Virus genome (UHGV): UHGV-0151496
Strand: one strand, 5' to 3'
DNA: 15,155 bases
Origin: a virus
How positions within the stretch are numbered: position 1 is the stretch's first letter; every line of letters starts with the position of its first letter. The notes under the pieces are model-generated. The model was not told where the DNA came from. It searched no databases and saw only the letters and a list, made by a program, of their open reading frames with translations. The position numbers and the translations under genes are program-made. Positions 4,066 through 11,882 of the stretch are shown in pieces.

Positions 4066-4400
4066 CACATCCACTGGACAAACTGAAATATTTCAAAGCG
4101 TTCATGGCTCACACAGCCAGAGCGTTTGCAGGGTTTTACGCGTATCCATGCAGAACAGAATGGGATGGCCTTCTGCAACGAATTTTAAAGGAAGGGAGCC
4201 TGGTGGCCATTGACGAGTTCACCGCGAAATTTCAGTTCAACGATAACGAATATGAAATCTGGATTGCTAACCGATGGTACGCATTCGGCCATCTGCGCCG
4301 TCTGAACGGCCTCTTGTCTGACGAAGCATTCCGCCCCTGTTTCAGAACCATGTATCGCCTGCATCAGATGGTTCAGGCATTTCTGGCTGCGGAGGCGTAA
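4062..4400 (+). CDS. Hypothetical early protein
   Basis: ORF track start 4044 is earlier in frame; the ATG at 4062 (MTHPLDKL...) overlaps the upstream stop as ATGA. Aromatic-rich, 112 aa. Confidence 0.55.
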   Translation: MTHPLDKLKYFKAFMAHTARAFAGFYAYPCRTEWDGLLQRILKEGSLVAIDEFTAKFQFNDNEYEIWIANRWYAFGHLRRLNGLLSDEAFRPCFRTMYRLHQMVQAFLAAEA

Positions 4401-4612: not shown

Positions 4613-4839
4613 CAGCAATCAGAAGCTATCCACGTAAACCAGGCAAGGCACTCGCCACACTGAAAAGTCTTCTTCACTCCGAAGTATGTGATTTTTGCGC
4701 GGGGCTCGGTTCACCAGGTGAGCCAGTCTCACCTGCAGCGATTCAGGCAGAACTCCTGATGCGCCTCGATGCGGTATTTGATTTTTACATTCATATGCCA
4801 CCAGAGACCAGCACAGCATCCGTTGCCGTAAAACGCTGA
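4609..4839 (+). CDS. Hypothetical early protein
   Basis: 76-aa ORF, translationally coupled to the upstream ORF; last ORF before a ~325-nt non-coding gap. Confidence 0.5.
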   Translation: MTAIRSYPRKPGKALATLKSLLHSEVCDFCAGLGSPGEPVSPAAIQAELLMRLDAVFDFYIHMPPETSTASVAVKR

Positions 4840-4962
4840 AACAGGTACACCATGCACACACAAAAAAACCGCTTGCCACAGCGCAATCAGTCAGGTTACA
4901 TTTCCGCTGCATCTCATAAAACGGATGCCGGGTTTCGCAGCCTGCTGATCAACAAAGCGCAC

Positions 4963-4983
4963 AACCGCGTCAGCGGTTTTTTT
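4963..4983 (+). terminator. Intrinsic-terminator-like hairpin with T tract
   Basis: aaccgc-gtca-gcggtt followed by ttttt: 6-bp stem, 4-nt loop, 7 consecutive T (4977-4983) on the + strand. Confidence 0.5.
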
Positions 4984-5039
4984 GTGCGTACCGCATTGCC
5001 GCACATTTTTTCGCATCAGAATTATGGTGGGGCGTACGG

Positions 5040-5069
5040 GGCCGACTTCGGTCGGGCCGGGTTTTCTTT
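5040..5069 (+). terminator. Second terminator-like hairpin (GC-rich stem, UUCG loop) with U-rich tail
   Basis: ggccgac-ttcg-gtcgggcc followed by gggttttcttt. About 7-bp stem with one bulge, then T-rich tract. Confidence 0.45.
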
Positions 5070-5165
5070 GTTGACCGGTACTGCGAACCTCGTACGTCTC
5101 GCCACCCACAGTTTCGCAGCTCTGGATGGTGAGTATTCAAAACTTACCAACAAAGAGGCCACACC

Positions 5166-5396
5166 ATGGCAAACCGCAAACAGCACCGCGCTATCGCGGA
5201 GCGTCGTCACATCCAGACTGAAATCAACCGCAGACTTTTCCGCGCATTCCGCGTCGCTAAAATCATGCACATCAACATGCTGCATGAGCGTAGCTGCGAA
5301 CTTTCAAACCTCTACTCATCCGCTGTTTTCAGCTATCTGGCGGATGATCTGCGCGAGCTTCAGCAGCTCATCCAGCAGCAAAACCAACTCCGTTAA
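5166..5396 (+). CDS. Hypothetical small basic protein
   Basis: 76-aa ORF with AAGAGG 7 nt upstream of the ATG; Arg-rich N-terminus and Gln-rich C-terminus (LQQLIQQQNQLR). First gene after the non-coding gap. Confidence 0.6.
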   Translation: MANRKQHRAIAERRHIQTEINRRLFRAFRVAKIMHINMLHERSCELSNLYSSAVFSYLADDLRELQQLIQQQNQLR

Positions 5397-5468
5397 TTCC
5401 TGTTCCGGGCCTTTCCCGCACCCTGCGGCGGGAGGCCTTCGCACATCTGTAGTAAAGAGAATTGCAGC

Positions 5469-5858
5469 ATGATTGACCGTCACGACTTCGTAAAATGGGT
5501 GCGCACACAGGACACCCGTCTGGCCCCAAAACTTCAGGCAATGTTTGATTTTTATCTCCGTGCCCGTGCCAGCCGGGCACGCACCACAAAACCGGAGAAC
5601 GCAGACACCCTTTATTTCACCGTGGACGACTGTTACCGCGTGGCCTTTACACCACAAGGTCTGGGCCTGTACACCCTGACACCACACGGCGACTCCCTGT
5701 TGGCGTATTACGACTCCCCGGCCTCCGTATTTGCGGCAATGCTGGCGCATCGTACCGCTGGCGGGTGTGCATCGCTGAGTGAATACACCGCTGAATTTAA
5801 CCGCCTTTCCGTCATCTTTTCGCAGGAGTGGCAGAGCGTGACGGGATACCAGCCATGA
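5469..5858 (+). CDS. Hypothetical protein immediately upstream of the replication gene
   Basis: 129-aa ORF; its TGA overlaps the gpA ATG (ATGA at 5855-5858). Confidence 0.55.
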   Translation: MIDRHDFVKWVRTQDTRLAPKLQAMFDFYLRARASRARTTKPENADTLYFTVDDCYRVAFTPQGLGLYTLTPHGDSLLAYYDSPASVFAAMLAHRTAGGCASLSEYTAEFNRLSVIFSQEWQSVTGYQP

Positions 5859-8771: not shown

Positions 8772-9731
8772 ATGAAAATTTGTATCGACGACGGCTCCAC
8801 CAACATCAAGCTGGCATGGACTGAGAACGGCGAACGCCGCAACGCCATCAGCCCGAACAGCTTCAAGTCGGAATGGTCTGCGCCGTTCGGCGGCTCGCAG
8901 CCCGCGAACTACATGCTTGATGGCGTGCGCTATGGTTTTGATCCGGTCAGCGATCGCTTTGTCCGGACGACCGACACGCAATACCAGTACAGCGATGTGA
9001 ATGTCATTGCCATTCATCATGCGCTGGTCAAATCAGGTATTACGCCACAGGAAGTGGATGTGGTTGTCACCCTGCCACTGAGCGAGTATTTCGACACAAA
9101 CGCACAGCCGGATATGACCAACATCAACCGCAAAAAAGCGAACGTCATGCGCCCGGTGGAGTACCAGAACGGTGAGGCATTCACTATCCGTAACGTGCGG
9201 GTTATGCCTGAATCCATTCCGGCAGGCTTTAAGGCACTGGCTGACATGAGTCCGTTTGAATCCCTGCTGATTGTGGATTTGGGCGGTACCACGCTGGATG
9301 TGGCAAAGGTTCAGGGGCAACTGGCAGGTATCAGCCAGGTATTTTGCGATCCACACGTAGGCGTTTCACTGATGACCGATGCCGTGCTGTCGGTGATGGC
9401 CACCAACGGTATGCGTACCAGCCACCACATCGCCAGTACCATTATCGAACATCGCCACGATGAAGCCTGGCTGCGCCAGCACATCCACAATGACGCGCAT
9501 TACGCCAGCCTGATGGCGGTTATTCGTGAAAAGGAAGAAACACTGAAACAACGCGTGATCCGCGCACTGGCGGGCTTTTCGGGATACGGTCGGGTGATGA
9601 TTGTCGGTGGAGGGGCGGAGATTGTGGCTCCGGCGGTACATGACGCTTACGGCCTCAACGCAAACATTCACACAACACCGGAGCCACAGTTTGCCCTGGT
9701 TAATGGACTCCATGACATGAACAGGGAGTGA
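8772..9731 (+). CDS. parM: Actin-like plasmid segregation ATPase ParM/StbA
   Basis: N-terminus MKICIDDGSTNIKLAW, SPNSFKSEW, YSDVNVIAIHHAL, VMPESIPAGF, LIVDLGGTTLDV, VMIVGGGAEI and C-terminal ALVNGL closely resemble plasmid R1/R100 ParM (StbA) as I recall it. AAGGAA precedes the ATG. Confidence 0.9.
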   Translation: MKICIDDGSTNIKLAWTENGERRNAISPNSFKSEWSAPFGGSQPANYMLDGVRYGFDPVSDRFVRTTDTQYQYSDVNVIAIHHALVKSGITPQEVDVVVTLPLSEYFDTNAQPDMTNINRKKANVMRPVEYQNGEAFTIRNVRVMPESIPAGFKALADMSPFESLLIVDLGGTTLDVAKVQGQLAGISQVFCDPHVGVSLMTDAVLSVMATNGMRTSHHIASTIIEHRHDEAWLRQHIHNDAHYASLMAVIREKEETLKQRVIRALAGFSGYGRVMIVGGGAEIVAPAVHDAYGLNANIHTTPEPQFALVNGLHDMNRE

Positions 9732-9735
9732 ACCA

Positions 9736-10047
9736 ATGACAACATCAACCAGGCGGATAAGTTTCTATCTGAAGCCAGCCGCAGTCAAGAACGAAGGTGA
9801 AGCATGCACATGGCTGGACAGCCTTACACCAGAAGCCCGCAAAAGCGGCCAACGCGTGGCTTTTCTGGCCGGGCTGGCGCTTCTGAAGACGAATCCGGCA
9901 GAGGCTTACCGGCTGGCTGCATGGGCTGACGATGAGGCGTTATCCGTGACACAAACCAGGACAGAACGCCCCGTGTCACAGCCAGTACCAACCGCACAGA
10001 TAACCAGTCAGATGGCCGGAAATATCCGGGCGCTATTTCCTGAGTAA
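9736..10047 (+). CDS. parR: ParR/StbB-like centromere-binding adaptor
   Basis: 103 aa directly downstream of parM (4-nt gap, GGGAG upstream). N-terminal RRISFYLKP...LDSLTPEARKSGQRVAFLAGLAL resembles the ribbon-helix-helix region of R1 ParR. Confidence 0.7.
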   Translation: MTTSTRRISFYLKPAAVKNEGEACTWLDSLTPEARKSGQRVAFLAGLALLKTNPAEAYRLAAWADDEALSVTQTRTERPVSQPVPTAQITSQMAGNIRALFPE

Positions 10048-10228: not shown

Positions 10229-11374
10229 ATGAACATTCAACAGCGTATAGCAGAACGCTTGGTTCAGGCCAGAAACGACGCGGGAATGAGTGCAAGCGCC
10301 GTCGCAGATGCGATCGGTGTTGTTCGTCAAACCTACAGTAAGTTTGAGCAGGCGCTAGGCGTCCCAAGCGTTACCCAACTCATCATGCTCTGCAAGATTT
10401 TCGATAAGCCTATCGGGTATTTTTATGAGCAAGATGATGGCGAGTTCCGTTTTGCAATGCGAGCAGATAGTCCGGATTTGTTGGATGCTAAACTTCGCAA
10501 TGAGTTGATTGAAAAGTTAAAAAATATCAATGCAATTGAGGAAGCTGCTGATGCTAATTTGCCAGAAGATCTTCCTAACTCAATGCCTATTTTTACCGCC
10601 AAAGCAGAAGATTTGCGAAGAGTCGAAGATAAGGCTATGGAAGAACGTTTCCGTCTTGGTATAGGAAACGCTACTTGCGTTGGTGACATTGTAGCCATTT
10701 TGGAAGCATCGGATATTCGAGTAATCCCGTTCAATCGCGAAGAAACCGATAAAGGGATGGTATTCGGATTTTCTGCGTTTTCGAACAAATACGGTACCGC
10801 GATTTATGTAAATGTTCACGACAGCATTTCAATAGAACGTCAAATCTTCAGTATTTGCCATGAATATGCTCATCTTATCTTCCACCGTGATGAGTATGAT
10901 GGCCCTGCTAAAAGCTATAAAACTAATGGCAAAGCAATTTCACCGGAAGAAAAAGTTGCTAATCACTTTGCTGCTTGTTTTTTGGTACCAGAAAGTGCAT
11001 TGCGAAAACAATTCGTCATGCAAGGTGGTGGATGGGCGTATGAGGAAACCGTCCTTAGACTAAAAAGCATTTTCAGAGTATCAGCCACTTGCATCATCGA
11101 TCGTCTTAGTAAATGTAATTTAATTAATCAACAAAACACTAGATACCTATGGGCAACCGCCAATCGTAAAGGTTGGAAGAGACACGAGCCAAATCCCATT
11201 AGGGAAGCACTAAATTATAAAGGTCGCCTAACCGTCTTATCGCGTAAAGCATGGGAAGCCGGTTCCGCGTCGGAAACCTTCATATCTGAACTTTTAGAAT
11301 TAGACAGAAAAGCTCTCAGCAATCTTCTGGATGAATGGTACGACGAACAGGAGGCCGGAGAGGATGCCGTTTGA
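10229..11374 (+). CDS. Fused XRE-family HTH + ImmA/IrrE (COG2856/DUF955-type) zinc metallopeptidase
   Basis: N-terminal HTH (SASAVADAIGVVRQTYSKFEQALGVPSVTQL) and central HExxH motif (SICHEYAHLIFH) in the context typical of ImmA/IrrE peptidases. 381 aa, AT-rich codon usage unlike neighbouring phage genes. Confidence 0.8.
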   Translation: MNIQQRIAERLVQARNDAGMSASAVADAIGVVRQTYSKFEQALGVPSVTQLIMLCKIFDKPIGYFYEQDDGEFRFAMRADSPDLLDAKLRNELIEKLKNINAIEEAADANLPEDLPNSMPIFTAKAEDLRRVEDKAMEERFRLGIGNATCVGDIVAILEASDIRVIPFNREETDKGMVFGFSAFSNKYGTAIYVNVHDSISIERQIFSICHEYAHLIFHRDEYDGPAKSYKTNGKAISPEEKVANHFAACFLVPESALRKQFVMQGGGWAYEETVLRLKSIFRVSATCIIDRLSKCNLINQQNTRYLWATANRKGWKRHEPNPIREALNYKGRLTVLSRKAWEAGSASETFISELLELDRKALSNLLDEWYDEQEAGEDAV

Positions 11375-11882
11375 ATGCCCCAGATGTGTTATCGATACGA
11401 ATGTACTGTCTGATTTTTACGAAGGTAAATGCTTAGATCTTATCTGGCAAATTTACCCGGGTGGTGTGTGGATTGACCCCTATGTCTGCGAGGAACTAAA
11501 AGCTAAATACAATCTTGATGTTCAGGAACAGCTTACACGCCTGCAACTTCCATACAATTTCACCAATGATTACGAACCTGAACATTTTATTGAAATGGCT
11601 GAGATAAAAAATCGCAGGAGAGCATTGAAGTATGCGGACATAAGCTGCGTTGTTAACGCGAGAATACATGATGCAACATGTCTTTCGGCGGATAATGCGG
11701 TTTATAAAACGTGTGCGGAACGCGGTGTAAAAGCCGCCCGCCACGGAGGGCTACTCCAAGAGGCTGTGCGCAGGAGACTTATCCACAAACATCAAGCCTT
11801 AATGCATTTCCAATTTTTCCTAGATCGTGGGTTAACGATGAAATCTTCTGTTCGAGAACAGATTCTTGCCAGTTTCGAATGA
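11364..11882 (+). CDS. PIN-domain-like nuclease (VapC-like fold), candidate toxin/effector
   Basis: ATG at 11364 with AGGAGG 9 nt upstream (ORF track's 11331 start lacks an SD). VIDTNVLSDF near the N-terminus (PIN strand-1 Asp), acidic residue in VCEELK, then DISCVVNARIHDATCLSADNAVY resembling the PIN D..IAA.A / T.D motifs. Start lies 10 nt upstream of the peptidase stop. Confidence 0.6.
   Translation: MPFECPRCVIDTNVLSDFYEGKCLDLIWQIYPGGVWIDPYVCEELKAKYNLDVQEQLTRLQLPYNFTNDYEPEHFIEMAEIKNRRRALKYADISCVVNARIHDATCLSADNAVYKTCAERGVKAARHGGLLQEAVRRRLIHKHQALMHFQFFLDRGLTMKSSVREQILASFE

Follow-up and report, generated by a model that had tools for sequence, protein, structure and literature searches.

The gap at positions 4840–5165 of virus genome UHGV-0151496, numbered along the whole analysed stretch of 15,155 nucleotides (the window), is best explained as a self-contained RNA regulatory cassette of the type found in P1 immI (c4) and in the P4 immunity region (seqA-CI-seqC), which a P2-like (P88-like) prophage carries in its early operon; we put the probability of this reading at about 0.8. 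The gap contains two RNA genes with conserved structures, for an IsrK-like small RNA and a C4-type antisense RNA, and the latter shows covarying complementarity to two sites, one of which lies over the Shine-Dalgarno sequence of the gene immediately downstream. That gene, the cargo of the cassette, encodes a putative antirepressor and is most likely kept off by the antisense RNA pairing over its ribosome-binding site. Existing knowledge explains the gap: the regulatory device is a known one, of which this is a new example.

Two RNA genes in the gap

The gap measures 326 nt: the accepted upstream open reading frame (ORF) ends at 4839 and the next ORF supported by homology starts at 5166. In an original prediction, made from the letters alone, it was described as lacking a convincing ORF within an operon of ATGA-overlapping genes, and as a possible site of two tandem terminators, an attenuator or antitermination checkpoint, or a small structured RNA of about 75–100 nt; an Rfam scan and a covariance analysis across homologous prophages were proposed as checks. 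The ATGA overlaps are present, at 4400/4612 and 4609/4839, and the absence of a convincing ORF is borne out below. When the Rfam scan was run on the whole 15-kb window at gathering thresholds, it gave exactly two matches, to two curated families; both lie in the gap on the plus strand and are of full length. The expectation of a small structured RNA was right, twice: a 75-nt IsrK-like RNA is followed by a C4-type RNA of about 80–90 nt. ARAGORN found no tRNA or tmRNA, and these were rejected as the source of the GC-rich structure. The two RNAs and the signals belonging to them are:

4873–4902, plus strand: promoter-like site (-35 TTGCCA, 18-nt spacer, -10 TACATT; 9 of 12 consensus matches)
4909–4983, plus strand: IsrK-like small RNA (Rfam isrK, RF01394), the equivalent of a1/b1 or seqA
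4963–4983, plus strand: intrinsic terminator of isrK, the first hairpin of the original prediction (6-bp stem AACCGC/GCGGTT, loop GTCA, U7)
5020–5109, plus strand: C4/CI-type antisense RNA (Rfam RF01695) with stems P1, P2 and P3

Relatives were retrieved from IMG/VR by means of the cargo protein, giving 80 loci with 53 distinct sequences; the cassette is present in all 80.

The isrK covariance model matches over positions 1–77 of 77 with 66.8 bits (E = 1e-12), above the gathering score of 50. The element is laid out as hairpin H1 (4909–4928), hairpin H2 (4929–4944), a single-stranded stretch and the intrinsic terminator, with 98.6%, 89% and 98.5% of cells across the relatives being paired in H1, H2 and the terminator, respectively. 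The latter has its stem at 4963–4968/4973–4978 and its seven U residues running to 4983, making it as terminator-like as had been proposed. A weak overlapping match to the c4-a1b1 motif (RF03163) scores 17.6 bits, against a gathering score of 46.7. The promoter-like hexamers pointed out earlier were found again by a consensus scan and are invariant in the 53 distinct relatives. The -10 hexamer ends 7 nt upstream of the first base of the isrK match, and the predicted transcription start, around 4909, would coincide with that base. In position, the site is the counterpart of PLE in P4 and of PisrK in Gifsy-1. At the level of the sequence, isrK has a promoter-like site and a Rho-independent terminator of its own, both conserved.

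The C4 model matches over positions 1–87 of 87 with 77.8 bits (E = 4e-14), above the gathering score of 45. Stem P1 (5025–5041/5088–5104) has 17 base pairs; P2 (5042–5046/5051–5055) is capped by a UUCG loop and P3 is formed by 5056–5060 and 5075–5079. The minimum-free-energy fold of C4 alone is the Rfam structure (-44.6 kcal/mol, z -3.5), and in 46 distinct sequences P1 to P3 are 100% paired, with compensatory, both-sided changes at four pairs. The mature RNA probably spans about 5025–5108. RNase P matures the C4 RNA of P1/P7 and the CI RNA of P4. This analogy, together with the finding that the consensus scan shows no separate promoter-like site between 4983 and 5020, supports a putative maturation from a longer precursor, from which RNase P would cut C4.

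The second of the proposed terminators, at 5040–5069, is no free-standing hairpin with a U tract. It consists of parts of C4 within the 17-bp closing helix: the UUCG-capped stem P2 (5042–5055), the 5' arm of P3 (5056–5060) and the U-rich P3 loop. Stem P2 and the U run are 6 nt apart, and the run is itself a recognition loop (a', see below) that is two U shorter in most relatives, leaving 4963–4983 as the one terminator of the supposed tandem. Two tandem intrinsic terminators, acting as an attenuator or antitermination checkpoint in the early operon, are therefore an improbable account of the gap. The first hairpin is conserved and has U7 behind its stem, the homologous IsrK terminator is leaky in Gifsy-1 (PMC4825925), and a weak stem at 5047–5061 was also flagged by a terminator scan; but the second hairpin lies inside a closed structure that the C4 model recognises, and the supposed U tract is a hypervariable loop whose changes are mirrored in two distant boxes. 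The scan itself counts 8 terminator-like sites in the region, against 4.1 ± 2.0 in shuffles, that is, within about 2 standard deviations. On its own it does no better than chance; the significance of the structures comes from the Rfam scores and the covariation. What stands of the checkpoint idea is that the first hairpin may be a leaky terminator, like that of IsrK in Gifsy-1 (PMC4825925); the logic that can be demonstrated is antisense, not that of a cis attenuator.

Pairing of the antisense RNA with two target sites

The C4-type RNA exposes two recognition boxes, a' and b', each of which has a partner in isrK (a1, b1) and another in the leader of the cargo gene (a2, b2):

4934–4940, plus strand: b1 box TTCGCAG, looped out by hairpin H2 of isrK; fully complementary to b'
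4949–4957, plus strand: a1 box TCAACAAAG, within isrK; exact 9-nt complement of the a' loop
5063–5074, plus strand: a' box UUUCUUUGUUGA, in the P3 loop of C4; 12 variants in relatives, each with its own a1 and a2
5081–5087, plus strand: b' box CUGCGAA, in the unpaired P3–P1 junction of C4; 6 variants, each with matching b1 and b2
5113–5119, plus strand: b2 box TTCGCAG, in the downstream mRNA leader
5128–5148, plus strand: spacer hairpin between b2 and a2 (GGUGAGU/ACUUACC), present in the minimum-free-energy fold
5148–5158, plus strand: a2 box CAACAAAGAGG, pairing with a' by 9 Watson-Crick and 2 G-U pairs
5166–5396, plus strand: cargo gene for a 76-residue protein of the P4 epsilon "derepression protein" family (PF25738), a putative antirepressor

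The complements of a' and b' thus occur twice on the same strand, in the order that is right for antiparallel pairing, and nowhere else in the 15-kb window are both found together. In the relatives, complements of the own boxes are likewise confined to the two expected positions (within ±2.5 kb of each). Box a2 overlaps the Shine-Dalgarno sequence AAGAGG (5153–5158), 7 nt ahead of the ATG at 5166. For the a'–b' segment of C4, the predicted duplex energy is -26.7 kcal/mol with isrK and -24.8 kcal/mol with the leader, against about -13 kcal/mol for two control stretches. The spacer hairpin brings b2 and a2 to about the spacing of b1 and a1. A hairpin is also seen, by eye, at this position in P4 and in phage mEp460; across the relatives 85% of its cells are paired with zero compensatory changes, which is weak support.

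A third TTCGCAG, at 5819–5825, lies 9 nt ahead of GTG 5828, with which the gene A ORF begins. As an extra target of C4 it was rejected and is taken as a chance occurrence: relatives that share the allele lack it, and the boxes of other alleles are never found there. About one copy per strand is expected by chance.

Covariation and alleles in relatives

The proposed covariance analysis gave both a conserved structure and covarying pairings. In an alignment of 46 distinct rows (A1), all 736 cells (100%) of the a'b':a1b1 pairing are standard pairs; 12 of the 16 pairs have changed on both sides, giving 185 compensatory cells. The mean in shuffles is 49, none of 500 shuffles reaches 185 and no slid register exceeds 49. 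For the a'b':a2b2 pairing, 96.4% of 830 cells are standard pairs, with 175 compensatory cells. The scaffold is almost invariant among the 53 distinct relatives and the boxes are hypervariable: the 12 a' and 6 b' variants occur in 17 combinations, each matched by its own a1/b1 and a2/b2. Cognate helices are 7–11 bp long, against a mean of 4–5.7 bp for non-cognate ones. By analogy with P1 and P7, this allele diversity would most simply be read as heteroimmunity.

Over 4851–5477, the window is 82–91% identical to P88-like phages (genus Xuanwuvirus, family Peduoviridae), and the RNA part, taken by itself, shares about 70% identity with lambdoid and Stx phages. In E. coli the best match is 95% identical, and in IMG/VR 96.6% (L072). 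The cassette was found in 1160 of 5426 complete E. coli genomes, with 1293 copies altogether and up to four in one genome. The three-part layout with different alleles is also present in phage mEp460, and 19 instances with other alleles come from Salmonella, Shigella, Citrobacter, Serratia, Erwinia, Mixta, Izhakiella, Symbiopectobacterium and, once, Pseudomonas; a pattern search of genome contigs gave 18 loci. At one locus of Symbiopectobacterium purcellii (L099; 6515–6564 and 7468–7517), two C4 modules with different a'/b' alleles lie about 950 nt apart, and in the locus from Pseudomonas lundensis (L091) C4 has an E. coli-type scaffold. Co-residence was considered as evidence of orthogonality and rejected: all seven two-copy genomes (7/7) carry different alleles, but this is expected by chance given the allele diversity.

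Homology to all relatives starts sharply, at a mosaic boundary around 4851–4857 (from about 4857), at an A-rich run just 5' of the -35 hexamer; to the left of it, the relatives carry sequences of several unrelated classes. It follows from this sharp boundary that the RNA cassette and the cargo gene move as a unit.

The derepression gene and its genomic context

The 76-residue cargo protein matches the Pfam "Derepression protein family" (PF25738) weakly but above threshold, with 28.6 bits at a cut-off of 27; for P4 epsilon itself the family score is 170 bits. An alignment of the two proteins shows 32% identity across 50 residues (E = 6e-8). The homologues of the cargo protein in the relatives are annotated "derepression protein". 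Among the variable codon columns of 5166–5396, synonymous and non-synonymous ones number 21 and 27 in the epsilon frame, against 12/37 and 8/40 in the other two frames. Lambdoid relatives have Rha-type antirepressors behind the same RNA module, so the RNA lock combines with different antirepressor cargos.

A further feature follows the cargo gene:

5407–5438, plus strand: GC-rich hairpin without a U tract, conserved in all relatives

Just past this hairpin, the downstream gene of the relatives switches between two unrelated classes; the hairpin may be the right-hand recombination boundary (3' edge) of the module, or a 3'-end stabiliser. In the window, the cargo gene is followed by a 129-residue ORF and then by replication gene A (PF05840, 429 bits). 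The window also encodes an integrase, a C-type repressor, a P2-type Cox protein, a portal protein and a gpP-type terminase. It is a P2-like (P88-like) prophage, the P88-like Xuanwuvirus phages (Peduoviridae) being its nearest relatives. It is not a P4-like satellite, which would have sid, psu, delta and an alpha primase but no virion genes: the window has P2-type Cox, gene A, portal and gpP terminase.

Elsewhere in the window, the repressor ORF on the minus strand (1102–1737, 211 residues) consists of two tandem P2 C-type repressor domains with two helix-turn-helix (HTH) matches; residues 27–99 and 115–205 align to the 93-residue C protein of phage P88 with 29% and 34% identity. It could be a single-chain form of a repressor that is normally dimeric on direct repeats, and a repressor of this type is likely the target class of an epsilon-type antirepressor. 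There is also accessory cargo: a ParM-like partition protein and a Plasmid_stab_B protein are encoded at 8772–10047, hinting at a plasmid-prophage lifestyle, and at 10229–11882 a gene for an HTH plus M78 (ImmA/IrrE-like) peptidase protein overlaps a PIN-domain gene.

Coding potential and the "Ash" annotation

That the gap is instead a protein gene or pseudogene, either the "ash family protein" that RefSeq places at the equivalent position or the 206-codon ORF 4852–5472, we consider highly improbable. The equivalent stretch is labelled an "ash family protein" pseudogene by PGAP (RefSeq), and the Ash family model PF10554 does match translations of the C4 region in mEp460 (37.5 bits), in P4 (59.7 bits) and, weakly, in locus L017 (16.8 bits). 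The +1 frame is open to 5472, with 81 of 83 sequences (the window and 82 loci) stopping at that codon, and in Gifsy-1 a 45-codon ORF starting at the 5' AUG of C4 is translated (PMC4825925). Translations of the gap in the window, however, have no match in Pfam or NCBIfam, neither to PF10554 nor, for the 206-codon ORF, to any other family. Relatives vary in the gap by 1- and 2-nt indels, which break the 4852–5472 frame, and a coding role of this ORF was rejected on both grounds. The window itself has two nucleotides more in the a' loop; owing to these two extra U residues, which break the Ash frame, the ORF from the C4 AUG (5024) ends after 16 codons. The variation, moreover, sits in boxes that covary as RNA pairs and not at third codon positions, and over 5166–5396 the best synonymous signal belongs to the epsilon frame.

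From 5167 to 5472, the +1 frame (that of ORF 4852–5472) is open across the derepression gene and the following intergenic region and overlaps the next gene by ATGA. This openness is probably a chance or compositional effect. An overlapping gene in the +1 frame of 5166–5472 was considered; with no synonymous excess (12/37, against 21/27 in the epsilon frame), it was left unproven.

The residues matched by PF10554 in P4 (the old "cI" ORF; locus L085, 8330–8521) and in mEp460 (locus L003, 2606–2780) are the translated C4/CI RNA gene plus its target region. The window counterpart of these stretches is 5020–5165. A survey of P4-like satellites has taken PF10554 as the marker of epsilon (PMC8628076); P4 epsilon, unlike this marker, belongs to PF25738. 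The annotation problem is widespread, as the cassette in the E. coli genomes counted above is often labelled an "ash family protein" pseudogene.

Comparison with known systems

P4 shares the layout of the window: a promoter, an isrK-like a1/b1 element with its terminator, the C4/CI RNA, b2, a hairpin, and a2 over the Shine-Dalgarno sequence. Its immunity region is ordered PLE - seqA - CI RNA - seqC, then kil/eta, epsilon, cnr and alpha. On Rfam, the CI RNA region of P4 matches C4 with 74.9 bits, and the seqA region matches isrK with 60.8 bits and c4-a1b1 with 44.1 bits. In both P4 and the window, the RNA elements are followed by an epsilon-family gene and, further on, by a replication gene; in P4, epsilon is part of the same operon. 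The element in the window is not a satellite like P4 but a complete P2-like phage that has Cox, gene A, a portal protein and the gpP terminase. Its epsilon-like gene is fused directly to the a2/Shine-Dalgarno site, with no kil/icd-like ORF in between; 36 nt separate isrK from C4 in the window, against about 107 nt in P4; and the cargo protein has 76 residues against the 95 of P4 epsilon, to which it is 32% identical.

The immI region of P1/P7 is ordered c4 antisense RNA - icd - ant1/2 (Citron and Schuster 1990, as summarised in PMC8198154 and PMC12197685). In these summaries, as is proposed for the window, the antisense RNA is co-transcribed with its own target and two boxes pair around the ribosome-binding site of the first gene, keeping the antirepressor off; allelic boxes set heteroimmunity (PMC12197685). 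Unlike in P1/P7, the cargo of the window is of the epsilon type and not Icd/Ant, and the likeness to P1 comes from the Rfam family, which was seeded with P1/P7, and from the literature.

In Gifsy-1 of Salmonella, the order is isrK - orf45/STnc1160 - anrP (Hershko-Shalev et al. 2016, PMC4825925). Experiments there demonstrated the short IsrK, transcription past its terminator and the processing of this longer transcript to an RNA of about 80 nt; the 45-codon ORF that starts in C4 is translationally coupled to anrP; and IsrK supplied in trans raised translation of the downstream antirepressor 139-fold (PMC4825925). Compensatory mutations link G28 and G31 of isrK with C162 and C159 (PMC4825925); in our mapping onto the Rfam models, G28:C162 and G31:C159 would correspond to b1:b'. 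Hfq binding, and activation of translation of the read-through mRNA by the short form, are known for the IsrK of Gifsy-1 alone (PMC4825925). The window resembles this system in the isrK family, in a terminated small RNA with putative read-through, in a predicted processed RNA of about 80 nt, in pairing of the middle of IsrK with the b'/a' region of C4 and in a putative antirepressor downstream. It differs in its cargo, which is of the Rha/Ant type in Gifsy-1, in the type of prophage, Gifsy-1 being lambdoid, and in the ORF that starts in C4, with 45 codons in Gifsy-1 and 16 here. The text of PMC4825925 does not identify STnc1160 with C4 and does not mention Rfam, Weinberg, Citron or Schuster.

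The c4-a1b1 motif (RF03163; Weinberg et al. 2010, PMC2864571) has the same place and the same two-hairpin shape as the isrK element of the window, with b1 in the second loop. The isrK model fits this element better than c4-a1b1, which stays below its gathering score, and includes the terminator.

Proposed switch

Transposing these systems to the window, transcription would start around 4909 from the conserved promoter-like site and yield a 75-nt IsrK-like RNA ending at the short intrinsic terminator. We infer by analogy that this promoter is active and that part of the transcription, from it and, in lytic growth, from an upstream early promoter, passes the terminator. The read-through RNA would carry C4, to be excised from this precursor by RNase P if processing is as for P1 C4 and P4 CI. 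Boxes a' and b' would then pair with a2 and b2 of the mRNA leader, placing the a'–a2 duplex over the Shine-Dalgarno sequence, and the epsilon-like derepression gene would not be translated; the untranslated leader may also bring Rho-dependent polarity onto the downstream ORF and gene A. Carrying exact copies of both target boxes, IsrK may compete for C4, whether in cis, as part of the precursor, or as a decoy in trans. As judged from the experiments on Gifsy-1, a higher ratio of IsrK to C4 would uncover the ribosome-binding site, allowing the antirepressor to be made and the prophage to be derepressed. The matched a/b alleles would be the specificity determinants, as in P1/P7 heteroimmunity: with C4 repressing the antirepressor and conferring allele-specific immunity in trans, relatives that are co-resident or superinfecting would escape each other's C4.

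Several points weigh against this switch. In the minimum-free-energy fold of the unprocessed 267-nt transcript, a fold that resembles "structure A" of the Gifsy-1 paper (PMC4825925), a1/b1 are paired in cis with a'/b' and the Shine-Dalgarno sequence stays free; repression must therefore come from processed C4 in trans, or else folding must be under kinetic control. In Gifsy-1, the regulated ribosome-binding site was assigned to the upstream 45-codon ORF that starts in C4, which here has 16 codons (ATG 5024 to TGA 5074), so the coupling model of Gifsy-1 is not simply transferable. The isrK element alone folds no better than shuffled sequence (z -1.3), and the role of IsrK may be that of a decoy or that of a co-target, as for seqA in P4. 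Finally, the link of the cargo protein to epsilon depends on a Pfam score that is borderline (28.6 against 27) and on an alignment of 50 residues.

A tentative alternative, which we regard as possible and which overlaps and is compatible with the antirepressor switch, is immunity in the style of P4: pairing of C4 with a1/b1 and a2/b2 would mainly cause premature Rho-dependent termination, turning off everything downstream including gene A and making the cassette a second immunity system rather than a specific antirepressor switch. The CI RNA of P4 causes premature termination (summarised in PMC4825925). The P4 region belongs to the same two Rfam families and, within a single operon, precedes epsilon and the replication gene alpha; the cassette here lies upstream of the epsilon-like gene, the 129-residue ORF and gene A, and diversification of alleles is what would be expected of an immunity determinant. 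On the other hand, no terminator or Rho-utilisation feature was identified downstream, the hairpin at 5407–5438 having no U tract; there are no C4 target boxes near gene A in the relatives, the TTCGCAG at 5819 being unique to the window; and gene A can presumably be transcribed from the early promoter as well.

Implications

Both RNAs and their pairing logic have been known for decades from P1/P7, P4 and Gifsy-1, and both are in Rfam. The cassette joins three separately described systems, IsrK/orf45/STnc1160, P1 c4/a1b1 and P4 seqA-CI-seqC, in one architecture, and places this architecture in a P2-like phage, where it would directly gate a protein homologous to the P4 inactivator of P2-type repressors. 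The clean three-way covariation, with at least 17 allele combinations, would supply orthogonal RNA regulators and a testable model of heteroimmunity.

A wider and more speculative reading, which we think rather doubtful, takes these elements together. Helper-type P2-like prophages, in about one fifth of complete E. coli genomes, would carry a P4-type lock-and-key RNA immunity cassette gating an epsilon-like antirepressor; conflict between co-resident P2-like phages and P4-like satellites would have driven the a/b boxes apart into many orthogonal specificities; and the IsrK-like RNA would be a signal-responsive anti-antisense decoy that induces phages usually held to be non-inducible. If this were true, the "Ash" family, used as the epsilon marker in satellite surveys, would largely be a translated RNA gene.

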